A stretch of DNA of 64,000 nucleotides from Patescibacteria group bacterium. Its GTDB lineage: Bacteria; Patescibacteriota; Patescibacteriia; Patescibacteriales; WJLG01. Made by a program: the position numbers and the translations under genes. Below, piece after piece: positions 623-36,228 of this stretch; position 1 is the first letter of the stretch, and every line of letters begins with the position of its first letter. The notes below the pieces were generated by a model. The model was not told the origin of the DNA and ran no database searches. It worked only from the letters and a program-made list of their open reading frames with translations. The stretch covers positions 66,847 to 130,846 of the forward strand of contig JBAZHE010000001.1 of the NCBI GenBank assembly GCA_041652555.1, read 5' to 3'.

Positions 623-2449
623 ATGAAAAATTTAATAAAGAATTTAGTGATTTTTTTGGCTATTTTTGTGGTTTTAACAGTAATTTTTGCCGCTTTCCAG
701 TCTTTAGAAGGAAAAAACAAAGATAAGGGTATTGGTTTAGGCGATTTGGCTTGGCAAGTTAATAATAATAATACAGAATTAATTTCCGTTGAAGGTTCAA
801 AAGTTACGGTAAAGTTAAAGGGTGGCGAGGAAAAAACCGTGCTTAAAGAAGACAGTGAATCTTTAACCGAGCTGTTAAAAAATCTCGGCGTGCCAGCGGA
901 GAAAATTTCTGCGGCCAATATAAAAATTAAAGAACGTTCCGGCTCAGATTTTTTCTTAACGATAATTCTTCCAATTTTGTTGCCATTTGCACTAATTGCT
1001 CTTTTTATTTATTTTATGATGCGGTCGGTTTCCGGCGCCAACAACAAGGCGATGATGTTTGGGCAATCCGGCGCTAAGGAATTCCGCAAAGAAGGAAAAG
1101 TGAAAGTGACCTTTAATGATGTGGCCGGTTCAGAAGAGGCGAAAGAAGAATTAAAAGAGGTAGTTGATTTTTTGAAGTCTCCGAAAAAATATAGTGATAT
1201 GGGGGCGCGCATTCCGCGCGGCTTCCTTTTGTTGGGTGCGCCAGGCACGGGTAAAACTTTAATGGCTAAGGCAGTGGCTGGTGAAGCTAATGTGCCGTTT
1301 TTTCATATTTCTGGTTCGGAGTTTGTGGAAATGTTTGTCGGCGTCGGTGCTTCCCGTGTTCGCGATTTATTTGCTCGTGCCAAGAAGAGCGCTCCTTGTA
1401 TAATTTTTGTGGATGAAATTGACGCTGTCGGCCGCCGCCGCGGTGCCGGCTTGGGCGGTTCGCATGATGAGCGCGAACAGACGTTAAACCAAATTCTCGT
1501 AGAGATGGATGGCTTTGAAAGCGGTACGAATATTATTGTTATCGCCGCGACTAATCGTCCCGATGTTCTTGACCCAGCCTTGTTACGCCCTGGGCGTTTT
1601 GACCGTCAGGTGGTTTTGGAAGTGCCGGACTTGAAAGAGCGTGAAGCGATTTTAAAAGTTCATTGCGATAAAAAACCTTTGTCCGCCGAAGTTGATTTAA
1701 AAAGAGTTGCTGGGCGCACTTCCGGATTTTCCGGCGCGGAATTGTCTAATCTTCTGAACGAAGCAGCGATTGCTACAGCTAAGGCCGGTGAGAAGGAAAT
1801 AAAAATACAGACGATTTTTGATTCTATTGAAAAAGTGATGATTGGGCCAGAAAGAAAAAGCCGTGTCGTTTCTGATAAGGAGAAAAAGATTACCGCCTAT
1901 CATGAGGCCGGACATGCTGTGGTTGCGCATAATTTGAAGAATATTGATCCGGTGCAAAAAATTTCTATTATTTCTCGCGGTCGTGCCGCCGGCTATACTT
2001 TGAAAACCCCGCAAGAAGATAAGCGTCTTCATTCTAAATCTGAATTTACAGAAGAATTGGCCGTCTTAGTGGCTGGACGCTTAGCCGAGAAAATATTTTT
2101 TAACGAAATAACCACCGGCGCGTCTTCTGATTTGCGCCACGCCACAGACATTGCTCGCGCTTTAGTGACAGAATATGGAATGAGCGACAAATTACCTTTG
2201 CGTACTTATGGCAATTCTGATGAATTGGTTTTCTTGGGCCGTGAAATGCACGAGGGCCGCGATTATAGCGAACGCACCGCCGAAGCGATCGACGCCGAGG
2301 TCGGCACTTTGGTTAACGAGGCCGTAAAAATTGCCACCGAAATTATTACCACTAAAAAAGCTGACATGGAAAAAATTGTCGCCGCCTTAATGAAAAGAGA
2401 AACCATGGAAAAAGCAGAATTTGAAGAAATCCTTGGAAAGAAAGAATAA
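623..2449 (+). CDS. ftsH: ATP-dependent zinc metalloprotease FtsH
   Basis: N-terminal TM segments, Walker [12 protein letters not shown]+ core, zinc motif HEAGHA. Confidence 0.95.
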
Positions 2450-7785: not shown

Positions 7786-9123
7786 ATGCATCAAAGGGGG
7801 AGAAAGTTAGTGCCTGGATTTTTATTTTTAGGCATTTTTTTGTTGACAAATTTATTTTACGGCGGTTTTGAAGTCAATGAGGCCAAGGCTGGTTTAGCTA
7901 ATCATGTGGTTATAAACGAGGTTAGTATTGACGGCGTGATCGGAACGGGTGGATCAGAAGACGATTGGGTGGAGTTGTATAATCCGACCGACGAGTCGGT
8001 TGATCTTAGTGGTTGGTCAATACAAAAAACCGCCGGCAGTGGTTCCTCGGCTTCTAAAGTGGCTTTAAGCGGAGTTATTCCGGCCAATAATTATTTTTTG
8101 ATTGTCCGTAATGGTGCCTCTACGGTAGCGTCTTTGCGTTCTATTGCCAATATTTTAGTAAGTAGCTCATTTTCTTTGTCAGCTGGAAATATTATTTATT
8201 TAGTGAATGATAATGAAAAAATTTCTAGCACCACCAATCCCTATCTTGATGAAAATATAGTGGATTTTGTCGGTTTCGGCGTAGCTTCTTTTTTTGAAGG
8301 AAATTTAGCCGCTCCGGCCATTCCTGAAGCTCAAAGTATAGCGAGAATTCCGGCCGGCGAGGATACGGATGAAAATTCCGTTGATTTTCAAATACAGAAC
8401 ATTCCTACGCCGACTAACTCTTCTTTAAGTAATGACAATAGTGATATCGGCGGCACAGTGCTTTTAACTGTTGCCTTAGAGTCTGACCCTGTGCGAAACA
8501 TTAGTACTGCCGGTGCGGAAATATTTTTTCAAGTAAACTCTATTGGTAATGCTTTGGTTTATTATGGGCTGGATGAATCCTATGGGAATTCTACTGGCTT
8601 GGAATTGGTTTCTGCTAATACTGTTGAAACCATTGCTATAGATGGCTTGACTTGCGACACAAGCTATTTTTATGCGGTTCGCGCAGAAAATTTAGACAGC
8701 ACTGAAAATGATCAAACTGAAAATTCTACTTTTACTACTTTGCCTTGCGGTATTGTTATTGATTCTTTAGTTATGACTAAAACTTCAGCCAAAGCAGATG
8801 ACCAGTACGGTGACGGTTGGCAATGGGAATTTAATATAACTATTTGGGATATGCTAGAAACTTCTTTGAAGATGAAATTTGATCAATGGACCGGCGCTGG
8901 GAGTTTAGCCGCTGGAAATAATATGCAATATTCGGTTGATGAAGGGGAGAACTGGGTGAGTATAGAAGATGATGGAGTTTATCCGGAGGTCGGCGCTGAT
9001 ATAGAAAATATTGATATGAGCACTACTGACGGTCGGCAAGTGAAAATTTTGGTTAGAATGAAAGTTCCCTTTGGCACTTCAGCCGGATATTATGACTCTA
9101 GTTATGGGATATTAACAGAATAG
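7786..9123 (+). CDS. Secreted lamin-tail-domain (LTD) protein
   Basis: Signal/TM segment, then VVINEVSIDG...DDWVELYNPTDESVDLSGWSI, typical of LTD. An alternative GTG start at 7810 follows a GGGGGAG SD. Confidence 0.8.
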   Translation: MHQRGRKLVPGFLFLGIFLLTNLFYGGFEVNEAKAGLANHVVINEVSIDGVIGTGGSEDDWVELYNPTDESVDLSGWSIQKTAGSGSSASKVALSGVIPANNYFLIVRNGASTVASLRSIANILVSSSFSLSAGNIIYLVNDNEKISSTTNPYLDENIVDFVGFGVASFFEGNLAAPAIPEAQSIARIPAGEDTDENSVDFQIQNIPTPTNSSLSNDNSDIGGTVLLTVALESDPVRNISTAGAEIFFQVNSIGNALVYYGLDESYGNSTGLELVSANTVETIAIDGLTCDTSYFYAVRAENLDSTENDQTENSTFTTLPCGIVIDSLVMTKTSAKADDQYGDGWQWEFNITIWDMLETSLKMKFDQWTGAGSLAAGNNMQYSVDEGENWVSIEDDGVYPEVGADIENIDMSTTDGRQVKILVRMKVPFGTSAGYYDSSYGILTE

Positions 9124-10103: not shown

Positions 10104-10955
10104 TTACAATAAGTCTTTAATTTTATCAAATTGCGTGACAGCGACTTTAGTATAAATTTGGGTTGTTTCCAGGCGTTCGTGTCCGAGTAAGGATTGGATA
10201 TAGCGAATATCTAGACCACTTTCCAAGAGGTGAGTGGCGAAGCTATGTCGGAAAGAATGAGGGGAGACCGGTTTATTTAAGCCGGCTTTTTTTGTATTTT
10301 GACTGACAATCGCTTGGATTGTTCGTGTTGTTAGACTGCCTCCGCGCATTGATTCAAAAACATATTCCAGCGGTTTGAATTCAGCTAAATATTTTTCAAT
10401 ATTTCTTAAAACAACCTTAGAAATAATTGTAACTCTATCCTTGGCACCTTTTGCGCCCTTGAGGTGAATAATCTTGCGATTAAAATTGATGTCATTAATT
10501 TTCAAGGAAACAACTTCACTGACGCGCAGGCCAGAACAGTAGAGTATTTGAATGATTAGTTTGTGCTTAATATTGTTGCAGGCATTAATAATATATAAAA
10601 TTTCTTTTTTAGAAAGCACGACTGGTAGTTTTTTGTCTTTTTTGGCACGTGGGAGGTTGAAGAAAAATTTACGATAAAGGATTTTTTCAAAATAAAATTT
10701 CAAAGCACTATAAGCGGTGTTTAAGGTGGAAGAAGAAAGTCCTTTGTCGCATAAAGATTCCAAATAATTTCGAATATGCCCATTTGTGATTTCTTTGGGG
10801 TTTTTACTTGCAAAATTCAATATTTCAGTGATATAATGCAGATAGGATTTGATAGTTTTTTGGCTAAATTTACGCAACTTCATTTCTTGTTTTAGCCCAA
10901 AAATCGGATCTTTGCTTAAATATTGATAGTTTTCTTGTAAAAAGTTTCCATTCAT
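10104..10955 (-). CDS. Tyrosine site-specific recombinase (Xer-like, SAM-like N-terminal domain); candidate cassette recombinase
   Basis: Catalytic set: R in SGLRVSE, K in KGAKDR, HSFRH, LGH, Y in QIYTKV. 283 aa. About 58 residues lie between the KDR and HSFRH boxes, so there is no IntI-type insertion. Confidence 0.9.
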   Translation of the reverse strand: MNGNFLQENYQYLSKDPIFGLKQEMKLRKFSQKTIKSYLHYITEILNFASKNPKEITNGHIRNYLESLCDKGLSSSTLNTAYSALKFYFEKILYRKFFFNLPRAKKDKKLPVVLSKKEILYIINACNNIKHKLIIQILYCSGLRVSEVVSLKINDINFNRKIIHLKGAKGAKDRVTIISKVVLRNIEKYLAEFKPLEYVFESMRGGSLTTRTIQAIVSQNTKKAGLNKPVSPHSFRHSFATHLLESGLDIRYIQSLLGHERLETTQIYTKVAVTQFDKIKDLL

Positions 10956-11008
10956 ATCTTTATTATGATTAGAAAATTATATTAATATTTTAACTAATTT
11001 AAAATAAA
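10921..11008. repeat. Direct repeat copy 1 (recombinase 5' codons plus upstream region)
   Basis: tattgatagttttcttgtaaaaagtttccattcat...ttttaactaatttaaaataaa recurs at 11694..11781, roughly 80 percent identical by eye. Confidence 0.8.
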
Positions 11009-11054
11009 GCGACAATCATTTTGTATCAAGATTTGTATGGTCTCTCCGTGTCTC

Positions 11055-11086
11055 TTGACAGTAGTATCGTGATACGATATTATAAT
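11055..11086 (+). promoter_or_regulatory. Putative higBA promoter with palindromic operator
   Basis: TTGACA (11055..11060) and TATAAT (11081..11086). The spacer is long (20 nt) and contains the inverted repeat GTATC-GT-GATAC. Confidence 0.45.
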
Positions 11087-11094
11087 TGTAGGTT

Positions 11095-11376
11095 ATGATA
11101 AAAAGTTTTAAATCCAAAGAGGCGGAGAAGATTTTTAACCGAGGATATTCTTTAAAACTTCCGTCCGATATTCAAAGAACGGCCCTACGCAAATTATCAA
11201 TGATTCAAGCGGCTATCGCTATTAATGATTTACGGATACCGCCAGCTAACCATTTAGAGCTATTAAAAGGCGATAAGTGTGGTCGGTACAGCATTAGAAT
11301 TAATGATCAATGGAGAATTTGCTTTGTTTGGCAATCGGGGGATGCCTATGAAGTTGAAATAGAAGATTATCATTAA
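11095..11376 (+). CDS. higB: HigB toxin (RelE/ParE superfamily, plasmid maintenance system killer)
   Basis: 93 aa with the typical HigB pattern (FKSKEAEKIF...HLELLKGDKCGRYSIRINDQWRICF). Toxin-first order, with HigA downstream. Confidence 0.88.
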   Translation: MIKSFKSKEAEKIFNRGYSLKLPSDIQRTALRKLSMIQAAIAINDLRIPPANHLELLKGDKCGRYSIRINDQWRICFVWQSGDAYEVEIEDYH

Positions 11377-11390
11377 AAAATTACAACAAT

Positions 11391-11693
11391 ATGATAAAGA
11401 AAATACAGCCAATTCATCCAGGTGAAATTTTGCAAGAGGAGTTTTTACTACCTTTTAAGCTTAGCCAGTATCGCCTGGCTAAGGATATTGCCGTGGCTCC
11501 AATCAGAATTAGTGAAATAATCCGCGGTTCGCGTGCCATCAGTGCTGATACTGCGTTGCGTTTGGGAAAATACTTTAATGTTTCGCCGGAATTTTGGCTA
11601 AATTTGCAGTCGCACTATGAGCTAGCTGTGGAAAGTGAGGAGTTAAGTGGAGTTCTAAAAAATAAAGTTAAGGTTTTTGAATTCGCTGTTTAG
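11391..11693 (+). CDS. higA: HigA antitoxin (XRE-type HTH)
   Basis: HPGEILQEEFL...LAKDIAVAPIRISEIIRG...TALRLGKYF, a HigA-family HTH. Confidence 0.88.
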   Translation: MIKKIQPIHPGEILQEEFLLPFKLSQYRLAKDIAVAPIRISEIIRGSRAISADTALRLGKYFNVSPEFWLNLQSHYELAVESEELSGVLKNKVKVFEFAV

Positions 11694-11781
11694 TATTGAT
11701 GGTTTATTGTAAAAAAATTTCCATTCATACTCCAGTATGATTAGAAGTTTGTATAATAATTTTAACTAATTTTAAAATAAA
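11694..11781. repeat. Direct repeat copy 2, including a 12-codon remnant of the recombinase 5' end
   Basis: The minus strand reads ATGAATGGAAATTTTTTT... (MNGNFF..., stop after 12 codons). Starts right at the higA stop codon. Confidence 0.8.
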
Positions 11782-11790
11782 TAACAACAA

Positions 11791-11829
11791 CTTCGCATAT
11801 ACCTTGTTCTACGAAATAAATTTTTTATC
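11791..11829 (+). other. Array-proximal junction: solo right arm (L'-like plus GTT box plus extended arm) of an attC-like site
   Basis: cttcgcatatacctt-GTTCTACG-aaataaattttttatc. The outer 24 nt match the reverse complement of 12587..12610 at 22/24 positions. Confidence 0.65.
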
Positions 11830-11962
11830 TAGTCGGTAATTTTAAGCTTAGTGATTTGAATGGTGACAGAAATTTTAATTTTTTTTATTAATTCAATAGG
11901 GGAAATAAGGAGTTTTTTCTGCTCTCGGAAGTCGCAGAAAAAATAAGTTATCAAAATTATTT

Positions 11963-12100
11963 ATGAATAAAACGTGGCATTTAAAAAATAAAATTCCAGC
12001 CAAAGCAACATTGGAGCAACGAATAGATTGGCACAAAAATCATCAAAAGTATTGTGCGTGCCGAGAGGTGCCGAAAAGTTTATTAAAATATTTTAAATAA
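11963..12100 (+). CDS. Small Cys-containing protein (45 aa), below the ORF-track cutoff
   Basis: MNKTWHLKNKIPAKATLEQRIDWHKNHQKYCACREVPKSLLKYFK, preceded by AAGGAG plus a hairpin leader. Lies 16 nt upstream of the VOC gene. Confidence 0.5.
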   Translation: MNKTWHLKNKIPAKATLEQRIDWHKNHQKYCACREVPKSLLKYFK

Positions 12101-12116
12101 ATTAAACAACAATTTT

Positions 12117-12476
12117 ATGATTAAAGATTATGACAATTTTTTCTTGCCCGTGAATAGTCTGGATGAGGCTAAACTGTTTTACGGCCAGACACTTGGTCTT
12201 TCTGTGAAATTTGATTTTTCTGATGCGGGGATGACTGCTTTTAAAGTCGGTGACCAAGAGCCGGCAATCATCGTAAAAGATATTAAAAAATTTCCCGACG
12301 CAAAAGTAACTACATGGTTTGTGGTGGATGATGTTCTGATTGAGTACAAAAATCTTAAAGAGAAAGGAGTTTCTTTTTTATCAGAACCATTTGAAATTTA
12401 TACTGGTTTGGCTGCGGAATTTGAAGATCCATTTGGCAATAGATTGGGAATTACCGACTATTCAAAGAAAAAATAA
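12117..12476 (+). CDS. VOC/glyoxalase-bleomycin-resistance family protein
   Basis: 119 aa with the single beta-alpha-beta-beta-beta module pattern (FYGQTLGL...FEDPFGNRLGI). Confidence 0.8.
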   Translation: MIKDYDNFFLPVNSLDEAKLFYGQTLGLSVKFDFSDAGMTAFKVGDQEPAIIVKDIKKFPDAKVTTWFVVDDVLIEYKNLKEKGVSFLSEPFEIYTGLAAEFEDPFGNRLGITDYSKKK

Positions 12477-12482
12477 TAAGGA

Positions 12483-12533
12483 GTTTTGAAAAAATGGAAT
12501 TCACCCCTAACCCCTCTTCCATTTTTTTAAAAC
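12483..12533. repeat. Cassette 3' hairpin (GTTTTGA...TCAAAAC stem, conserved 17-nt loop)
   Basis: gttttgaaaaaatggaa / ttccatttttttaaaac around the loop ttcacccctaacccctc. Confidence 0.75.
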
Positions 12534-12586
12534 AAAAAATTAAATTTTCTTAGATGCAGTCTCAAATTTAGTTTAACAAAAATCGA

Positions 12587-12748
12587 GATAAAAAATTTAC
12601 ATCGTAGAACAAGGAATATCTGGTTCAATAATTTTTCAATATAGATTACAATAAGGAATAAAAAATTATTTCACCCATATTTTTGCTCCGCTAACGCTGC
12701 GCAAAAACATCAGATATTCCTAATAGTTGTCTGAAATATTTTTTTGTC
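12587..12748 (+). repeat. attC-like site J2 (162 bp)
   Basis: R''-like cgtagAAC (AAC 12608..12610), inner arm aaggaatatctg, loop of about 88 nt, cagatattcct, then GTTgtctg (GTT 12726..12728). Confidence 0.7.
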
Positions 12749-12832
12749 TTTAGCGGTAATTTAAAATTTTGGTGCATTGAACAAAGACGAAAATTTGATT
12801 TTTAATTTATTTAAAGAGGGGTAAAAAGGAAT

Positions 12833-13417
12833 ATGTTTCAATATATAGTTTTAATCGGAGCGGTCGTGCAGTTGGTTGGTGTATTTGTTTATATTCGAGC
12901 AACTGTTCGTGGCGAAACAAAACCGAATAGAGTCACTTGGTTAATGTGGTCTGTGGCGCCATTGATTGGATCTGTTGCAGCTTTTTCTGACGGCGTTCGT
13001 TGGGCGGTGCTTCCAGTTTTTATGTCTGGTTTTGCGCCACTGCTTGTTTTTATTGCTTCTTTTGTAAATCCCAAATCATATTGGAAGCTTGAAAAATTTG
13101 ATTATGTTTGTGGAGCTTTTTCAATTTTGGCATTAGTACTTTGGGGGATTACAAAAGAACCATTGATTGCGATTATTTTTTCAATCGCCAGTGATGGATT
13201 TGCGGCAGTGCCAACTATTATTAAATCTTGGAAACATCCAGATTCTGAATCCGTCGAAGCTTACACTACTGGGTTGTTCAACTCATTAACAAGCTTTTTT
13301 GCACTGAGAACATTTGGTATTTCAGAATTGGCCTTTCCAATATATTTAGTTTTGGTAAATTCGTCATTGATTGCCGCTGTTTATAAAGGGCGATTGAAAA
13401 AAATAATCGCAAAATAA
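12833..13417 (+). CDS. Multi-pass membrane protein, unknown function (cassette ORF)
   Basis: 194 aa with about 6 hydrophobic helices and an AAAGGA SD. Confidence 0.7.
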   Translation: MFQYIVLIGAVVQLVGVFVYIRATVRGETKPNRVTWLMWSVAPLIGSVAAFSDGVRWAVLPVFMSGFAPLLVFIASFVNPKSYWKLEKFDYVCGAFSILALVLWGITKEPLIAIIFSIASDGFAAVPTIIKSWKHPDSESVEAYTTGLFNSLTSFFALRTFGISELAFPIYLVLVNSSLIAAVYKGRLKKIIAK

Positions 13418-13420
13418 GGA

Positions 13421-13471
13421 GTTTTGAATTTTTGGCATTCACCCCTGACCCCTCTGCCAAAAATCCAAAAC
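13421..13471. repeat. Cassette 3' hairpin, second copy
   Basis: gttttgaatttttggca / tgccaaaaatccaaaac around the loop ttcacccctgacccctc. The stem sequence covaries relative to the other copies. Confidence 0.75.
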
Positions 13472-13523
13472 AAAAATCAAATTTTCTTTTAGAATAACCA
13501 AAGTTTGTGCCAATAAAATAGAA

Positions 13524-13743
13524 GACAAAAAAATACATCAGACAACACGGCACATGCGGTTCAGAAATTTTGCGCAATTATAATTCAAGGTATGCAAAAT
13601 TTCTTCTCCCAAATTGCGCTGACGATATGGCAAATTTGGTGATATAATCAAGTAAAGCGATAATTAACAAGTTCAATCAATAATCCACGGCGCAACTTCG
13701 CATGTGCCGAAACGTTATACGCAATTCAAAAAATATTTTTCTG
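13524..13743 (+). repeat. attC-like site J3 (220 bp)
   Basis: cagacAAC (13544..13546), inner arm cggcacatgcgg, loop of about 130 nt containing TGaTATAAT, then cgcatgtgccg and GTTatacg (13714..13716). Confidence 0.7.
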
Positions 13744-13865
13744 ATAATAAGGAGTTTTGATAGGCAAAAAATAAGAATAAATTTGTTTTTTATTTAATTT
13801 AACAGGGGAACAAGGTGTTTTCTCCGCTCCGCCACAAAAACGATTTATTAATTTACATTTGAAAT

Positions 13866-14507
13866 ATGGCGTCAGAAAATTTTGAATTGAACCAAAAACC
13901 GGAAGTAAGCATTAATTTAATAGAGAGAATCGAAAAATTAGAAAAGATTAAAACTCCAGAAGAATTATTGTCGTTCATGAAAAAGAATATAAATTATGGT
14001 TTTATTGGTAAAGACGACGATAAAGTATATTCTCCTCGGCAAGAAGGCTGGGGTGTAGGAAAACAACCGGAAGCAAGATTACAAAGTCCTGAAGAACTTC
14101 TGAAAAGTGGTTATGGGGCTTGTTGGGAACAGACGGATTTTGAAAAACAATGGTTTGCGAAAAATAATTTTGAGTTTAAAACCCTCCTTTTGATGTTTGG
14201 AAAAGATATCAGTCAAAAAAATCCAGCCCATACGTTGTTAGCATATAAAAAAGACGATAAATGGCACTGGTTTGAAAACACACTCGATAAATATAGCGGA
14301 ATTTATGAATTTGATGATTTAGAGGATTTAATTGAGTATGCCAAAACAGTACTTATAAATAATGCTTTTAATAATGGGGCTACAGAAAACGATATTAAAG
14401 AATATAAATTGTACGACTATGATATGCCAGCATATGGCTGTAGCACTGATGAATTCATTGGGAAAATAAAATTAAATTCTAGAAATCAGGAAAGAAAAGG
14501 AAAATAA
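13866..14507 (+). CDS. Hypothetical protein with a possible transglutaminase/papain-like Cys-His core
   Basis: GYGACWEQTDF ... HTLLAYKKDDKWHWFENT. The C/H/polar spacing resembles a transglutaminase-like fold, but the assignment is weak. Confidence 0.6.
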   Translation: MASENFELNQKPEVSINLIERIEKLEKIKTPEELLSFMKKNINYGFIGKDDDKVYSPRQEGWGVGKQPEARLQSPEELLKSGYGACWEQTDFEKQWFAKNNFEFKTLLLMFGKDISQKNPAHTLLAYKKDDKWHWFENTLDKYSGIYEFDDLEDLIEYAKTVLINNAFNNGATENDIKEYKLYDYDMPAYGCSTDEFIGKIKLNSRNQERKGK

Positions 14508-14600
14508 AGGAGTTTTGGAAAAAAGGAATCCGTTATTGTATTTTTCGAAAGATCGAAATCATGATAAAATATAGATAAAGTCGAACTAATCTCAATATTC

Positions 14601-15434
14601 ATGACAAAGAAACAAAAAATAAAAGTTGAAGGTATTGAAATAGTCACTTTTACCAAAGATAATAGCGATTATATTTCTTTAACCGATATTGCAAAACATA
14701 AAAATTCAGAGGCCGGCTTGGTTATTTCCCATTGGCTAAGCACTCGTTTTGCCATTGAATTCATGGGGATATGGGAAAAAATGAATAATCCCAATTTTAA
14801 AGTTACTGAATTCAGTAACTTTAAAAATCAAAGCGGCGCCAATGGTTTTGTATTGTCTGTCCAGCAATGGGTCAATAAAACTAGCGCTATTGGAATTTTT
14901 GCCACAAGAGGGCGCTATAATAGCGGTACTTTCGCTCACAAGGACATTGCCTTTGAATTTGCTTCTTGGATTTCAGCGGAATTTAAGTTTTATCTCATCA
15001 AAGAATTTCAGCGATTAAAGGAAGATGAAAATAACAGGCAAAAGTTAGAATGGAATCTCCAGCGAACACTGGCAAAAATCAACTACAAAATTCATACCGA
15101 TGCCATAAAGGAGAAATTAATCCCCCTTGAATTAACCAAGGAACAGATTAATATGGAATATGCCAGTGAAGCGGATTTGCTCAATGTTGCATTATTCGGA
15201 ATAACCGCAAAAACGTGGCGAGATCAAAATAAAGAATTAGATGGAAACATTCGAGATTATGCCTCAATTGAACAGTTAGTGGTTCTGTCTAATCTTGAAA
15301 GTATAAACGCATTGTTAATTCGCGAAGGATTTTCCACTGAAGATCGGATTCAAAAATTAAATAGCACCGCGATAATTCAGATGAAATCGCTTTTAATAAA
15401 CACTGAAATAAAAAAATTGGAATCGCCAAAATAA
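14601..15434 (+). CDS. KilA-N domain-containing protein
   Basis: The N-terminal 130 aa match the KilA-N pattern (YISLTDIAK...W...FAHKDIAFEFASWIS), followed by a coiled C-terminal half. Confidence 0.8.
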   Translation: MTKKQKIKVEGIEIVTFTKDNSDYISLTDIAKHKNSEAGLVISHWLSTRFAIEFMGIWEKMNNPNFKVTEFSNFKNQSGANGFVLSVQQWVNKTSAIGIFATRGRYNSGTFAHKDIAFEFASWISAEFKFYLIKEFQRLKEDENNRQKLEWNLQRTLAKINYKIHTDAIKEKLIPLELTKEQINMEYASEADLLNVALFGITAKTWRDQNKELDGNIRDYASIEQLVVLSNLESINALLIREGFSTEDRIQKLNSTAIIQMKSLLINTEIKKLESPK

Positions 15435-15446
15435 AAACAATAAGGA

Positions 15447-15497
15447 GTTTTGAAAAAACGTAATTCACCCCTAACCCCTCTTCCGTTTTTTCAAAAC
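15447..15497. repeat. Cassette 3' hairpin, third copy
   Basis: gttttgaaaaaacgtaa / ttccgttttttcaaaac around the loop ttcacccctaacccctc. Confidence 0.75.
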
Positions 15498-15550
15498 AAA
15501 AAAATCAAATTTTCTTATACGTAAAGCAACGCCAGCTCAATAAAAACCAA

Positions 15551-15711
15551 GATAAAAAATTTACATCGTACAACAAGGAATATCTGGTTCAATAATTTTT
15601 CAATATTATTTATAATAAGGAACAAAAAATTATTTCACCCATATTTTTGCTCCGCTATCGCTGCGCAAAAACATCAGATATTCCTGACTGTTAGGCGTAA
15701 TTTTCACTTTT
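15551..15711 (+). repeat. attC-like site J5 (161 bp) ending in the canonical core GTTAGGC
   Basis: 15551..15685 differs from 12587..12721 at about 7 of 135 positions. Identity stops just before GTTAGGC (15690..15696). Confidence 0.75.
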
Positions 15712-15736
15712 AAGAAGTCGCCTTTAATAAATACAT

Positions 15737-16405
15737 ATGATTTACTTAAAACAATTAATCATCATTATTCCCGCCTTTGCTGTTCTATTGTATCTAACAA
15801 CTGGATACAAGATACTTAGGCCATTTCGTAAAAACCAAATGAAAGAATTGGCGGAAAAGCTAAATCTTGAATTTGTTGGAAATGAAAAACGCAGTTGGAA
15901 AGAACGATTTTTTAGCTATTCTGTTAAAAAAAATATTATTCGTGGAGAATACAACAATAAAAAAATTGAAATTTTTGACTTTGATTCAATATTGAAAAAT
16001 GCTGTAAATCCGATTACCAACGCTGTAATGACCTATTATTATGGGAAAAATCCAGTCCATATCACCTATATAAATGGGAAAATATATAAAGATAAATATT
16101 TACCATACCTTAACATTAATAAAATTGAAAAATTGATAAAAGATGAAATTTCGTTAACCGAATATGATAAAATATTTTTTAACAAAGGTGTATTTCTGCT
16201 GACTTTATTAACATCACTTTGTATAACTTCAGTAATTGGATATTATTTTTATGCGTTTTATTCGGTTAGTCTAACAAAAATTTTAATTTTTTTAGTGCCA
16301 ATTAGCTTAATAGTTGCATATTTCTGCTACAGAATAGCTAAAAAATCTGGATACAAGGTTTTAATAAAAAATGATCCAAGAGAAGTGGCGACTTCTAAAA
16401 AGTGA
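15737..16405 (+). CDS. Membrane hypothetical protein (cassette ORF)
   Basis: 222 aa with an N-terminal TM and two C-terminal TM helices. No motif recognised. Confidence 0.6.
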   Translation: MIYLKQLIIIIPAFAVLLYLTTGYKILRPFRKNQMKELAEKLNLEFVGNEKRSWKERFFSYSVKKNIIRGEYNNKKIEIFDFDSILKNAVNPITNAVMTYYYGKNPVHITYINGKIYKDKYLPYLNINKIEKLIKDEISLTEYDKIFFNKGVFLLTLLTSLCITSVIGYYFYAFYSVSLTKILIFLVPISLIVAYFCYRIAKKSGYKVLIKNDPREVATSKK

Positions 16406-16492
16406 AAACTTGCTCCGCTATCGCTCCGCACCCCGCCGCGCTCTCGTTCCGCTACGCTCCACTCGGGACGCCTAACACCGAATATGAGGTTC
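16397..16492 (+). repeat. Left arm of the last attC-like site (J6), with canonical GCCTAAC and a 58-nt GC-rich insert
   Basis: aaaagtgaaaac + insert + acGCCTAAC (16470..16476) + accgaatatgaggttc. Complementary to 15690..15711. No matching right arm found downstream. Confidence 0.6.
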
Positions 16493-16646
16493 AAAAATTT
16501 GCCTTAACGAAATATAATAATGAACGCAAATTTTTTCATCCAAATCTAATTATGACGCAAAACAATGAGTTCATTCCATTCTGGAATATGCTGTCCGTGA
16601 TGATTAAGGCATTAGATTGTTTAAAAACTAAGTTAAATATACAATT

Positions 16647-16708: not shown

Positions 16709-17671
16709 ATGACTTACTTATCATTAATTGTAAAAAATCGTTTGGAAGAAAAATTGTCTAAACTTAACAAACTTCGTCCATTACCGAAATCAGCAGTGCA
16801 AAAACTTCGGGAAAAATTTCAAATTGAGATGACCTACAATTCAAACGCCATTGAAGGAAACTCTTTAACCTTAAAAGAGACCTTTTTGGTTATAAATGAG
16901 GGTATAACAGTGAAAGGAAAACCTTTAAAAGACCACTTGGAAGCAAAAGATCACCATGCCGCACTAGAATATTTATATGATTTGATAGATAACGACAAGA
17001 AGCACACCGTTTCCGAAATGCTTATTAAAAACTTACACCAAATTATTTTGCAGGAAACAGACAAGGAGTGGGCCGGCCGATATAGAAACGCCAATGTAAT
17101 TATTGGCGGCGCCGATCATACTCCACCGGATGCGTTACAGGTACCGAATAAAATGAGGGACTTAGTTGCTTGGCTAAATTCACAAAAAAGCAAGCTGAAT
17201 ATTGTTGAGCTTTCCGCCTTGTTGCATCATAAATTAGTTCACATTCATCCTTTTTTTGACGGCAATGGCAGAACAGCACGTTTGACAATGAATTTGTTTC
17301 TAATGCAAGCCGGATACCCGCTGGTGGTAATTATGAAAACCGATCGAAAAAAATATTATGATGTGCTGGATAAAGCAGATAAGGGCAAATATGAACCGCT
17401 GATAAAATTCATTGCTCAATCTGTTGAGCGTTCCTTGGACATTTATCTAAAAACATTAACGCCGGTAACACAAAAACAGGAGAAATTTTTGACGCTTGCG
17501 GAAATAGCTAAAACCACCCCTTTTTCCGCGAAATATTTAAACTTACTATCTAGACAAGGTAAATTAGAAGCATACAAAGAGGGCAGAGATTGGTTAACCT
17601 CAAAAGAGGCTATTGAAAGGTATTTGAAGAACAGAATACGGCAAAGAAAAAATAAAATCGCCAAAAAATAA
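16709..17671 (+). CDS. Fic family protein (AMPylase-type motif) with C-terminal HTH
   Basis: Fic motif HPFFDGNGRTAR. The C-terminal LTLAEIAK...YLNLLSRQGKLEAYKEGRDWLT looks like an excisionase/MerR-type HTH. Confidence 0.9.
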   Translation: MTYLSLIVKNRLEEKLSKLNKLRPLPKSAVQKLREKFQIEMTYNSNAIEGNSLTLKETFLVINEGITVKGKPLKDHLEAKDHHAALEYLYDLIDNDKKHTVSEMLIKNLHQIILQETDKEWAGRYRNANVIIGGADHTPPDALQVPNKMRDLVAWLNSQKSKLNIVELSALLHHKLVHIHPFFDGNGRTARLTMNLFLMQAGYPLVVIMKTDRKKYYDVLDKADKGKYEPLIKFIAQSVERSLDIYLKTLTPVTQKQEKFLTLAEIAKTTPFSAKYLNLLSRQGKLEAYKEGRDWLTSKEAIERYLKNRIRQRKNKIAKK

Positions 17672-22179: not shown

Positions 22180-22255
22180 TTCGAATTTCGAAGTGCGAGT
22201 TTCGAATTAAATTTATAAATTAGATAATTCGCACTTCGCACTTCGAAATTCGAAA
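22180..22255. repeat. Long hairpin in tRNA spacer 1 (TTCGAA-rich)
   Basis: ttcgaatttcgaagtgcga...tcgcacttcgaaattcgaa, with at least 19 contiguous complementary nt. Confidence 0.75.
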
Positions 22256-22264
22256 GTTGAAAGG

Positions 22265-22338
22265 GGCTGGGTAGCTCAGCTGGTTAGAGCACGGCACTCA
22301 TAACGCCGAGGTCGAGGGTTCAAGTCCCTCCCCCGCCA
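22265..22338 (+). tRNA. tRNA-Met (anticodon CAT; elongator-like, but Ile2 cannot be excluded)
   Basis: Manual cloverleaf: anticodon loop ctcataa, T-arm gaggg ttcaagt ccctc. One acceptor-stem mismatch. Confidence 0.8.
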
Positions 22339-22347
22339 CAATGAAAA

Positions 22348-22439
22348 GTTCGAATTACGAAATGCGAAGTTCGAATTGATTTTTTAAGAAATATTTAGTA
22401 GTATTATAATTCGCACTTCGAACTTTGTAATTCGAAATT
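22348..22439. repeat. Long hairpin in tRNA spacer 2, related to spacer 1
   Basis: agttcgaattacgaaatgcgaagttcgaatt ... aattcgcacttcgaactttgtaattcgaaatt. Confidence 0.7.
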
Positions 22440-29096: not shown

Positions 29097-29128
29097 AATT
29101 TATAATTTATAATTTATAATTTATAATT
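29097..29128. repeat. Tandem heptamer (AATTTAT)x4, which reads (TATAATT)n
   Basis: aatttataatttataatttataatttataatt, upstream of the infA promoter. Confidence 0.8.
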
Positions 29129-35033: not shown

Positions 35034-36122
35034 ATGGAGAATTTACTAGATAAAATTAAAGCTTTGCAAGTTCGGCTGGGTGAAATCTGGCAGGTTTTAG
35101 ATTTAGAGAAATCAAGGGCGGAATTGATTGAAAAAAGAGCCTTGATGGAGGAGGAGAATTTTTGGCAGGATCAAGAGAGCGCCGTGAAAATTAGCAAAGA
35201 AGCCGAGGATTTGGATAAAGAAATAAAAAAATGGGAAAGCGTCAAGGCGGAAATTGATGATTTTTTTGATTTGATAGGCGAGGCGATTAAAGAAAAAGAT
35301 AATACTTTAGAAAAAGAAATTATTAAAAACTTAGCTGATTTGGAAAAAAGATTTGAGGACTTGGAATTTTTTGCTTTATTCTCTGGTAAGTATGACCGCA
35401 ATAATACAATTCTTTCTATACATGCCGGTACTGGCGGTGTAGATGCGCAGGATTGGGCGGAAATGTTGGAACGGATGTATTTGCGGTTTTGCGAGAAAAA
35501 AGGTTTTAACGCTGAAATTATTGATCGTAATACTGGCAATGAAGCTGGAATAAAAAGTTCTACTATAAAAATAGACGGACTATGGGCGTTTGGAAATTTA
35601 AAATCTGAAGCCGGTGTTCATCGCCTAGTGCGCATTTCACCTTTTGATGGCGAAGCTATGCGCCAAACGTCTTTTGCTTTGGTCGATGTGGTGCCGGAAT
35701 TTAATGATGTTGATGATATTGAAATAAAAGACGCTGATATAAAATTGGAAACTTATCGTTCGTCTGGAGCTGGCGGCCAAAATGTTAATAAAGTAGAAAC
35801 AGCGGTGCGCTTAATTCATATTTCAACTGGTATAATAGTTAATTGCCAAACTCAGCGTTCTCAGTATCAAAATCGTGAACTAGCGATTAAGCTTTTAAAA
35901 TCTAAATTAAAAGAAAGACAAATTGCCGAGCAGGCAGTTGAACAAAAAGAAGCACGCGGCGAAGTTCAGCGCGCCGATTGGGGAAGGCAGATTCGTTCTT
36001 ATGTTTTGCAACCATATCAAATGATTAAGGATCATCGCACTGAAGCCGAGACTTCCGATGTTAAGCGAGTTTTGGATGGCGAGATTGATATGTTTATAGA
36101 AGCGTATTTAAAAATGAAATAA
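35034..36122 (+). CDS. prfB: Peptide chain release factor 2 (single ORF, no programmed frameshift)
   Basis: SPF tripeptide (RISPFD) and GGQ ([10 protein letters not shown]). The full N-terminus lies in the same frame. Confidence 0.93.
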
Positions 36123-36127
36123 GAAAT

Positions 36128-36228
36128 AATTTTGAATTTTCAATTTTGAAATAAATCTAAATTTTATAATTTTAAAAATTAAGAAATTAGAAAATTATTT
36201 CAAAATTGAAAATTGAAAATTCAAAATT
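36128..36228. repeat. A/T-only long inverted repeat built from TTTTGAA/TTGAAAA heptamers
   Basis: aattttgaattttcaattttgaaataa ... ttatttcaaaattgaaaattgaaaattcaaaatt. The loop carries TATAAT. Confidence 0.75.

Follow-up and report, generated by a model that had tools for sequence, protein, structure and literature searches.

The stretch analysed here, called the window below, comprises 64,000 nucleotides (nt) of a Patescibacteria contig with a G+C content of 37%. The region of interest consists of a gene for a XerA-like tyrosine recombinase, an attI-like site and a row of four gene cassettes, all of which are co-oriented and read away from the recombinase (Table 1). Judging by its sequence, this region is probably a chromosomal integron-like gene-cassette platform of Patescibacteria (candidate phyla radiation, CPR), run by the adjacent XerA-type recombinase and not by a canonical integrase. 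Such a platform comprises the recombinase gene, a dif-like attI about 80 nt upstream of it and a one-directional cassette array. Each cassette begins with TT-NNNN-GAAAT and ends with ACATC-NNNN-AAC, A, a box L'', a structured loop, a box L', a 4-nt spacer and a G.

Table 1. Features of the recombinase and cassette region, in window coordinates (aa, amino acids; ORF, open reading frame).
Feature	Position	Strand	Composition and basis
Tyrosine recombinase, XerA-like, 283 aa	10104..10955	minus	Transcribed away from the cassettes; Pfam
HigB/HigA pair with its own promoter and an 88-nt duplication on both sides	10916..11775	+	HigB 11095..11376; HigA 11391..11693; repeats, Pfam
attI-like site	11790..11817	+	ACTTCGCATAT / ACCTTG / TTCTACGAAAT; 11-6-11, dif-like; conserved in relatives
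Cassette 1	11807..12726	+	Left arm 11807..11830; small ORF ~11963..12101; glyoxalase-family ORF 12117..12476; trailer hairpin 12484..12534; right arm 12587..12610; inner site to G12726; repeats, Pfam, alignments
Site J2	12587..12728	+	R'' arm GATAAAAAATTTACATCGTAGAAC; A; L'' AGGAATATCTG; 88-nt loop with two hairpins; L' CAGATATTCCT; spacer AATA; GTT
Cassette 2	12727..13714	+	Left arm 12727..12750; ORF 12833..13417 (194 aa); trailer hairpin ~13422..13472; right arm 13522..13546; inner site to G13714
Site J3	13522..13716	+	R'' ...ACATCAGACAAC; A; L'' CGGCACATGCG; loop; L' CGCATGTGCCG; spacer AAAC; GTT
Cassette 3	13715..15690	+	ORF 13866..14507 (213 aa); KilA-N ORF 14601..15434 (Pfam)
Site J5	15551..15692	+	95%-identical copy of J2; spacer GACT
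Cassette 4	15691..16545	+	Left arm 15691..15722; ORF 15737..16405 (222 aa); outer right arm 16387..16409; insert 16410..16467; core right arm 16468..16476; then truncated J6
Site J6, truncated	from 16468, ends ~16545	+	A; L'' CCGAATATGAG; hairpin 1

The recombinase contains the Pfam domains Phage_integrase (1.3e-42) and Phage_int_SAM_4, and its catalytic motifs are present. Its sequence is identical to that of a protein of a Patescibacteria metagenome-assembled genome. With 249 bits it passes the cutoff of 220 of the NCBIfam model NF040815 (recomb_XerA_Arch), which places it in the Xer family. The integron integrase model TIGR02249 gives 205 bits, under its cutoff of 265, in a match split into two pieces; PRK15417 gives 133, under a cutoff of 435. 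The closest solved structures by sequence are XerA 4a8e (1e-46) and 5hxy (2e-40), followed by VchIntIA 2a3v (5e-39). The alignment to 4a8e is contiguous and, in the alignment to 2a3v, ten query residues (192–202) replace 53 residues of IntI (183–236). Because so few recombinase residues stand opposite this segment and the XerA alignment is unbroken, the IntI-specific insertion (I2 α-helix) is, according to these alignments, absent, and the protein does not have the mark of the IntI clade. No second tyrosine recombinase was found in the window. Xer-like recombinases of candidate phyla have been described as the 'Cand' subgroup and presumed to be housekeeping enzymes (PMC8138268).

The attI-like site meets cassette 1 between G11806 and T11807. 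Its two 11-bp arms and 6-bp centre correspond to an Xer core (28–30 bp, with a centre of 6–8 bp). Across 17 Patescibacteria loci, the consensus of attI is (A/G)TTCGCATAT-A.CTTG|TT-NNNN-GAAAT, and the site is located 70–95 nt upstream of the recombinase start codon. The motif TT-NNNN-GAAAT, which is also the left-end (R') arm of the cassettes, resembles the XerD arm of Escherichia coli dif, TTATGTTAAAT. No dif-like site besides attI was found in the window. The GC skew of the window shows no sign change, all thirteen 5-kb bins being positive, and its sign is also constant across the locus in the partial contigs of six comparison loci, L001, L006, L009, L013, L016 and L021 (L-numbers denote genomes, metagenome contigs and viral contigs). 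Since the skew keeps one sign across the locus, attI does not coincide with a GC-skew switch, evidence against the position of a classical dif; nor does it stand as a single terminus site, several related sites following in tandem. The contigs being partial, the recombinase may also serve dimer resolution elsewhere.

The original prediction held that the two ends of a cassette are complementary to each other, and recomputed alignments reproduce this complementarity. The left end of cassette 1 (11806..11829) matches the reverse complement of 12587..12610 at 22/24 positions, and that of cassette 2 (12726..12748) matches the reverse complement of 13524..13546 at 21/23. The sole mismatches in both are an adjacent AA at the left end facing CA at the right end, 9 nt from GTT. 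In cassette 4, 15690..15698 pairs with 16468..16476 at 9/9 positions and 15700..15711 with 16398..16409 at 11/12; the two halves of this right arm are split, exactly at the CA/AA position, by a 58-nt G+C-rich insert (16410..16467). An unsupervised repeat search recovers the same arms in longer form: I1 (34 nt, 91%), I6 (25 nt, 92%) and, in cassette 4, I13 (22 nt, 95%; 15701-15722 / 16387-16408). For each right end, the best complementary upstream 22-mer starting with GTT matches at 19–20 of 22 positions, and the runner-up among about 170 candidates at 13–17. The core AAC-A-N11-GGTTCA occurs four times in 64 kb against 0.14 expected, and all occurrences lie within 12.6–16.5 kb, so that within the window it is confined to this interval and the arms are not scattered.

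Cassette 3 apparently consists of two fused cassettes, as its repeat composition (families D1, D2 and D4) suggests. The trailer of its first gene is cut at ~14529, and its 3' end (15427..15685) is a copy of the 3' end of cassette 1 (D1 and D2). Its ends are not complementary to each other; its right end pairs instead with the left end of cassette 1 (19/22), because its 3' end copies that of cassette 1. The left end of cassette 3, GTTATACGCAATTCAAAAAATATTTTTC, recurs in L001 and L020 before other genes. The ORF of cassette 2 has no Pfam match.

The complete junctions J2, J3 and J5 have the same anatomy: ACATC-NNNN-AAC, A, an 11-nt L'', a loop, L' as the exact complement of L'', a 4-nt spacer and GTT-NNNN-GAAAT. 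The loop consists of GGTTC, hairpin 1 (with a co-varying stem of about 10 bp), TCACCCAAATT, hairpin 2 and AAAC(A/T)T. J6 represents the 5' half only; its match to a complete site in L007 (89% identity) covers the first 72 nt of that site, beyond which the two diverge, and downstream of J6 no L' partner was found. The sites have a length of 63–228 nt from AAC to GTT, and pairing runs 22–33 nt past the triplet. The quartets after GTT include AGGC, ATGT, ATCG and ATAT, among others. The arms follow the pattern A-Y-W-T-C-NNNN-A-W, which reads ACATC-NNNN-AA on the top strand of the right arm, ATTTC-NNNN-AA on the bottom strand of the left arm and AC(A/T)TC-NNNN-AT on the L' side. The 5' half of each site has the 11-6-11 spacing of attI; the 3' half has a 9-nt spacing.

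When a cassette is closed into a circle, its first 22–33 nt pair with the arm before AAC and form a long R stem containing the C.A/A.A mismatch. Next after this stem come an asymmetric internal loop of 1 and 4 nt and a perfect 11-bp L stem without bulges. Folding of reconstructed circular junctions had been proposed as a check; for cassette 1 it gives -33.5 kcal/mol for the top strand and -38.3 kcal/mol for the bottom strand. The site of cassette 1 as it stands in the array has a hybrid outer stem, with -18.5 (top) and -22.8 (bottom) kcal/mol. The bottom strand is the more stable one in 14/14 reconstructed sites, by 5.4 kcal/mol on average, partly because C.A/A.A of the top strand becomes T.G/T.T on the bottom strand. 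Compensatory changes occur in the L stem and hairpin 1 across 15 related sites (RNAalifold). Rfam searches of the arrays of the window and L001 yielded nothing meaningful. Scans for sigma-70 promoters (31 found, 26 expected in A+T-rich DNA) and for terminators (3 found, 4.2 expected) were both at background. As a lead only, with the promoter scan overall at background, hairpin 1 of J2, J5 and J6 (12625..12653, 15589..15617 and 16490..16518) contains sigma-70-like elements, TTCAAT or TTCAAA-17-TACAAT or TATAAT, directed into the next cassette, and J3 contains CTGACG-18-TATAAT at 13619..13648.

The anatomy is conserved far beyond the window. A structure scan (AAC and N, an 11-nt box and its complement on either side of a loop, 3–5 nt and GTT) finds sites in L001, L002, L006, L007, L009, L012, L016, L017, L020 and L023, with recombinase identities down to 45%; the site-bearing loci include Moranbacteria, Falkowbacteria, Magasanikbacteria and Komeilibacteria. 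All scanned sites lie upstream of the recombinase, on the opposite strand. The scanner was limited to AAC/GTT, an AAT/ATT option having given many false matches in low-complexity DNA. With it, no convincing sites were found beside the recombinase homologues of Bacteroidota and Bacilli (L025–L037). An exact 20-mer containing GGTTCA has no match in the first five loci, where related sites vary at these positions. Loci with recombinases 45–89% identical share the order recombinase–rnhB–infB on the flank, the attI, the site geometry and an array placed upstream and divergent, and have no cassette protein in common. A scan of metagenomes with the 5' half-site alone gave at least 120 loci; 18 of them hold a recombinase homologue, and in 16 of these 18 the homologue is upstream of the site on the opposite strand. 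Many contigs of metagenome-assembled genomes end at attI or no more than 150 nt past it, the effect that a region variable within populations is expected to have on assembly. The orientation of arrays relative to replication was also compared; it was inconsistent between loci and this line was dropped.

The content of the arrays is hypervariable next to stable flanks. Relatives with a 75–89% identical recombinase retain the order recombinase–rnhB–(445-aa gene)–infB, with 60–80% protein identity; the cassette proteins of the window and HigBA have no homologue in these syntenic relatives. Similarity between arrays at the DNA level is confined to leaders, trailers and sites. In L001, attI directly adjoins the recombinase; next come a gene-less unit of about 200 nt, a cassette with a Na/Ca exchanger and then other cassettes. 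The gene-less unit and the cassettes have self-complementary ends with the same AA/CA mismatch. Two IMG/VR contigs classed as viral (L039 and L040) each carry one compact site; in L039 it is located near 2075..2102, with the triplet TTT instead of GTT, and the contig encodes a DNA methyltransferase, a primase and a replication initiator. Since these contigs of phage or plasmid type carry a single site, larger mobile elements may use the same platform. The matches in viral contigs L038 and L041 and in metagenome locus L064 were rejected as chance matches inside coding sequence.

Complementarity was also counted with boundaries that were set independently of it. Half-sites were defined by flanking motifs only, and a cassette was taken to extend from a 3' half-site to the 5' half-site that follows. 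L'' and L' are perfectly complementary in 38 and carry one mismatch in 14 of 78 non-redundant sites (together 52/78), compared with 1.9 and 2.0 (3.9) after permutation. Of 88 cassettes, 58 have a left end (TT-NNNN-GAAAT) that is complementary to their own right end at no fewer than 18 of 24 positions, where permutation leaves about 1.5; the cassettes are thus discrete units, as had been proposed from the window. Among these 58, positions 1–9 and 12–24 pair in 79–100% of the cassettes and positions 10–11 in 2%. The internal loop suspected in cassettes 1 and 2 proves to be a family-wide, asymmetric feature: AA faces CA in 55/58, and a fully paired alternative at positions 10–11, which the motif filter permitted, was not found. 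In recombinase-anchored loci, which were not selected for ACATC, the right arm has this motif in 12/19 sites and ATTTC in 0/19, and the left arm reads GAAAT or AAAAT in 15/19. In 56/58 cassettes the longest ORF runs in the direction of the site; the median cassette length is about 700 nt. The products of sampled cassettes are miscellaneous and include methyltransferases, HD, LysE, HIT and GrpB proteins, 2'-5' RNA ligase, an SDH-type protease, membrane proteins and proteins without a Pfam match.

The junction between cassettes lies after the first base of GTT, as had been claimed. The gene-less cassette reads ...GCGTAAT with CCAC-A|TT in L001 and ...GCGTAAC with CCAC-G|TT in L006, and it precedes several different cassettes in each of these two loci. 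The triplet's first base is thus matched to the final base of the right arm, which assigns it to the upstream unit. The same cassette is found in different contexts in four cases (88–100% identity); homology on the right spans the whole site, the spacer and GTT and then ends. L133 contains a cassette directly at attI and a 100%-identical copy one position further on (8144 and 9107, minus-strand orientation), the pattern expected from recombination between attI and a cassette site. J2 (12587..12721) and J5 (15551..15685) differ, as described, at 7 of 135 positions, and their homology stops right after CAGATATTCCT; the reading of this break, 4 nt before GTT, as a signature of G|TT exchange does not hold, because the spacer is linked to the upstream site. 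In 50 pairs of sites with a common inner 3' half, the first two spacer positions show identities of 0.84 and 0.78 (background 0.51 and 0.42), and past GTT identity is at background level, at +5 to +7 as well as further than +13; the spacer thus normally travels with the upstream site. The spacer difference between J2 and J5 is atypical and probably reflects drift at unpaired positions, since the other six of the seven differences are in loops or at unpaired positions. The initial interpretation stands, then, as regards discrete units, the G|TT junction and the conserved CA/AA loop, and fails as regards the homology break.

In the window, a HigBA pair is wedged between the recombinase and attI; in relatives, attI is directly beside the recombinase and HigBA is missing. 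The pair has the promoter TTGACA-17-TATTAT (11055..11083) and a palindromic operator. It is flanked by an imperfect 88-nt duplication (10916..11003 and 11689..11775) that covers recombinase codons 1–12. The attI-side copy shows 88% identity to L006 and 78–81% to its twin in the window; its closer relationship to L006 suggests an import of attI and the array from a relative.

The cassettes share several further elements. Each cassette gene is followed by TAAGGAGTTTTG and a 17-bp hairpin whose stem co-varies and whose loop, TTCACCCCTRACCCCTCT, is conserved; these trailers are located at 12477..12535, 13415..13475 and 15441..15500 (also 13748 and 14506), and in L001 at ~8530..8610. The loop has three copies in the window, compared with 0.02 expected. 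It is C-rich and complementary to the G-rich box of the cassette leaders. The leader, AGGGGAA..AAGG(A/T)GTTTT, a hairpin and AAAAC-GATTTATT, is conserved before unrelated genes and common to several genomes; it is found at 11895..11950 and 13800..13852 and also in L001, L006, L013 and L020. A second, inner pair of inverted repeats is present in cassette 1 (11868-11891/12527-12550) and cassette 2 (12789-12808/13467-13486) and, together with the cassette ends, forms an interrupted palindrome of about 110 nt. G+C-rich inserts of about 60 nt with CTCCGCTNCGCT-like repeats at the CA/AA position represent a second type of right arm and are also found in L001 (~191), L006 (~5790), L007 (~4679), L009 (~9498) and L016 (~9182). 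The insert motif CCGCTNNCGCT is also present in hairpin 2 of the sites and, in the window, is restricted to the array (3 matches). The gene-less G+C-rich cassette of about 200 nt has a continuous hairpin site without the 1/4 loop and no Rfam match. It is present in three copies in L001 (9923..9690 and 8390..8170 on the minus strand among them), in at least four in L006 and also in L007 and L016, often after every gene cassette, and may be a selfish mini-cassette or a regulatory module.

Other features of the window lie past the array. A Fic/DOC-domain protein with a C-terminal helix–turn–helix (16709..17671) is encoded directly past the truncated array end. A cluster of inverted repeats built on TCGAAGTGCGA / TCGCACTTCGA is situated in the intergenic region 22184..22430, upstream of an 821-aa ORF. 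Tandem 7-nt TTGAAAA-like repeats occupy 36118..36226 between two large ORFs, and ATTTATA-like repeats occupy 29098..29126.

The adjacency of gene and array points to this recombinase as the enzyme that acts on the sites, and its substrate is probably the folded single-stranded bottom strand. The folded cassette site would mimic an Xer core, with the outer stem as one arm and the L stem as the other; the central region of the mimic would be formed by the 1-nt/4-nt loop and a G:C pair. In attI and in the folded site alike, cleavage by the recombinase would fall at AA|C of the bottom strand, which corresponds to G|TT of the top strand; one strand would then be exchanged, and replication would complete the insertion. 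The CA/AA mismatch and the 1/4 loop may contribute to strand choice. In integrons a single strand is likewise exchanged and replication completes the process, as it does for CTX phage with XerCD; the integration of single-stranded CTX phage DNA by XerCD needs no special protein domain.

Compared with integrons such as the Vibrio array, the system has a recombinase gene divergent from a one-directional array of mostly single-gene cassettes, with attI beside the gene (17 loci; in the window HigBA stands between). The sites are imperfect palindromes in the order R''-L''...L'-R', with paired outer and inner boxes, AAC...GTT and an unpaired asymmetric spacer. The junction likewise follows the G of GTT, with TT and what follows in the next cassette, and the bottom strand folds better. 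The genes are miscellaneous, ORF-less cassettes occur and the content differs between close relatives. The recombinase, however, lacks the IntI insertion of about 40 residues (I2 helix) and scores as XerA. The R stem is 22–33 nt long here and 7 nt in integrons. What stays unpaired and conserved here is a C.A/A.A mismatch located outside the crossover, in place of the extrahelical L-box bases of integrons, and the spacer is 1 versus 4 nt here and ~5 versus 5–6 nt in integrons. The boxes read ACATC-NNNN-AAC / GTT-NNNN-GAAAT, whereas integrons have RYYYAAC / GTTRRRY; only the triplets are common, and the 57–141 nt length range of attC does not apply. Here attI is dif-like (11-6-11) and the cassettes have leaders and trailers, ~100 nt long, that are conserved. 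CTX-phi and other integrative mobile elements exploiting Xer (IMEX), which integrate at dif through host XerCD with a folded single-stranded attP, are alike in the proposed use of an unmodified Xer-type recombinase on a single-stranded DNA hairpin that mimics a duplex core, with one strand exchanged and replication finishing the process, in tandem accumulation at a chromosomal site and in single sites on phage- or plasmid-like contigs. The units here, in contrast, are promoter-poor single genes and not phages or islands; one recombinase serves where CTX-phi employs XerC and XerD, the chromosomal site is placed by the recombinase gene and not by a GC-skew switch, and the cassette framework is conserved across whole phyla. 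XerS/difSL of streptococci and archaeal XerA/dif are similar in employing a single recombinase with an 11-6-11 site, which in XerS systems is adjacent to the gene. Their sites, in contrast, are single, located in the terminus region and used for dimer resolution, with no cassette arrays. The system is integron-like in its workings with a protein and R boxes that are not those of IntI integrons; its protein is of the Xer type, with a site that has neither the position nor the singleness of dif.

Several observations weigh against an integron-like platform. The recombinase is without the I2 insertion that, in the passage of PMC8138268 citing MacDonald 2006, IntI is stated to require for recombining folded attC. 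It stands within conserved housekeeping synteny and above the cutoff of the XerA model, so it could be an ordinary enzyme of dimer resolution in this cell, and the array its by-product. Degeneration is seen in cassette 3 and site J6, and when sites are chosen by their 5' half only, the L' partner is imperfect in about one third. Within the array the R stem is a weak hybrid, so excision may need another geometry. Covariation in 14 reconstructed junctions (96% of cells paired, 66% when shuffled; compensatory changes in 25/33 pairs) is partly circular, the partners in this alignment having been picked by complementarity; the boundary-blind counts are free of this bias. In 18/108 cassettes with well-matched outer arms (~17%), the quartet after GTT and the right arm of the same cassette disagree at two positions or more, and half of these 18 swapped quartets read AGGC. 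In 3/3 same-cassette pairs (L052/L068, L133/L145 and L158/L055), the quartet differs between the copies. A replacement of the quartet through pairing with R'' of the upstream site was tested and rejected (0/6). There is also reassortment between the R'' arm and the inner part of the site. The quartet swaps, this reassortment and the imperfect L' boxes are not predicted by a single AA|C exchange; possible causes are a second exchange point, heteroduplex repair or short-homology deletions between GAAAT boxes.

A different account has a small, though real, probability: attI would be the chromosomal dif, the recombinase an ordinary Xer enzyme and the cassettes small integrative elements exploiting Xer (IMEX), piled up at dif and parasitizing dimer resolution. 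CTX, TLC and the gonococcal island are examples of IMEX. The XerA-level score, the conserved core-gene synteny and the single tyrosine recombinase of the window agree with this account, and so do the 11-6-11 attI, with arms resembling those of E. coli dif, and the two phage- or plasmid-like IMG/VR contigs with a single compact site. What speaks against it is the lack of a GC-skew switch at the locus in the window and in six other loci: the site is placed by the recombinase gene, not by a skew switch, and site and gene are co-inherited at a fixed distance of 70–95 nt across phyla. The cassettes are single genes of about 700 nt with no replication or transfer functions, and they have a conserved leader and trailer framework in common. 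The account differs from an integron-like platform in purpose more than in chemistry. Distinctly unlikely is an array of alternating inverted duplex Xer sites, like the pdif modules of Acinetobacter plasmids, which would recombine as duplexes (cointegrate formation and resolution) without any folded single strand and in which complementarity would merely reflect inverted arms. The pdif modules, too, are gene modules bracketed by inverted Xer-type arms in alternating orientation, reassorting between replicons. Here, inverted R-type arms bracket each cassette and inverted L-type arms each inner loop, the 5' half of every site (ACATC-NNNN-AA|CANNNN|RTATNNGGTTC) has the 11-6-11 spacing of attI and the inner module reassorts relative to the cassette bodies. 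Binding arms, however, need not co-vary, yet the L boxes match their partners in 52/78 sites against 3.9, and the cassette arms match over 22–33 nt, far past an 11-nt arm. The two halves are spaced by 6 and 9 nt, the latter not a normal overlap length, whereas pdif sites are inverted duplex XerC/XerD sites with 6-nt centres served by two recombinases. The strict polarity (GAAAT on the left, ACATC on the right, 56/58 genes co-oriented) is at odds with recombination of inverted halves, bottom-strand folding is favoured in 14/14 sites and the array is chromosomal and anchored to the recombinase gene.

Two further explanations dispense with this recombinase or with recombination altogether. A role at the RNA level is very improbable; the palindromes would then be terminators or processing sites and the cassette ends would pair the 5' and 3' ends of mRNA. 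The elements are indeed intergenic and on the coding strand, the hairpins of leaders and trailers, with AAGGAG and C-rich loops, are conserved and hairpin 1 contains possible promoters. Left without explanation are attI by the recombinase, hypervariable genes beside syntenic flanks, covariation at N|TT and the same cassette behind different sites; the terminator scan (3 versus 4.2 expected) and the lack of Rfam matches are also unfavourable. RNA roles may nevertheless coexist with recombination. Extremely improbable is the possibility that the cassettes are transposable units with terminal inverted repeats, akin to miniature inverted-repeat transposable elements, inserted in tandem by a transposase encoded elsewhere, the recombinase being incidental. 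Their terminal inverted repeats of 22–33 nt and the multiplication of the ~200-nt gene-less unit in arrays would suit such units, but no transposase was found in any array and no target-site duplications were seen, all junctions occur at the same N|TT beside an Xer-like arm, sites are found only upstream of the recombinase in one orientation and attI keeps a fixed distance from the gene.

Full-text literature searches found no description of this system in the material searched, which is not proof of novelty. Integrons are held to rest on a single innovation, the I2 helix, which lets IntI recombine folded single-stranded attC. Patescibacteria may, with about even chances, have an integron of their own, in which a plain Xer-type recombinase without I2 would act on folded dif-like hairpin sites cut at AA|C, the strand being set by C.A/A.A and the 1/4 loop; this system would be either ancestral to IntI integrons or an independent invention. 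The rule for the site, ACATC-N4-AAC-A-L''...L'-N4-G|TT-N4-GAAAT, is simple enough for cassette searches in metagenomes and for the design of substrates. The integron-like platform, if real, could explain why CPR assemblies so frequently break just upstream of the recombinase gene. The full logic of an integron, combined with an Xer-type enzyme lacking I2, a dif-like attI and cassette sites that resemble an Xer core, makes the origin of integrons from Xer/dif directly testable. For genome-reduced, host-dependent CPR bacteria, the platform would, if confirmed, be a new route of gene acquisition and shuffling.

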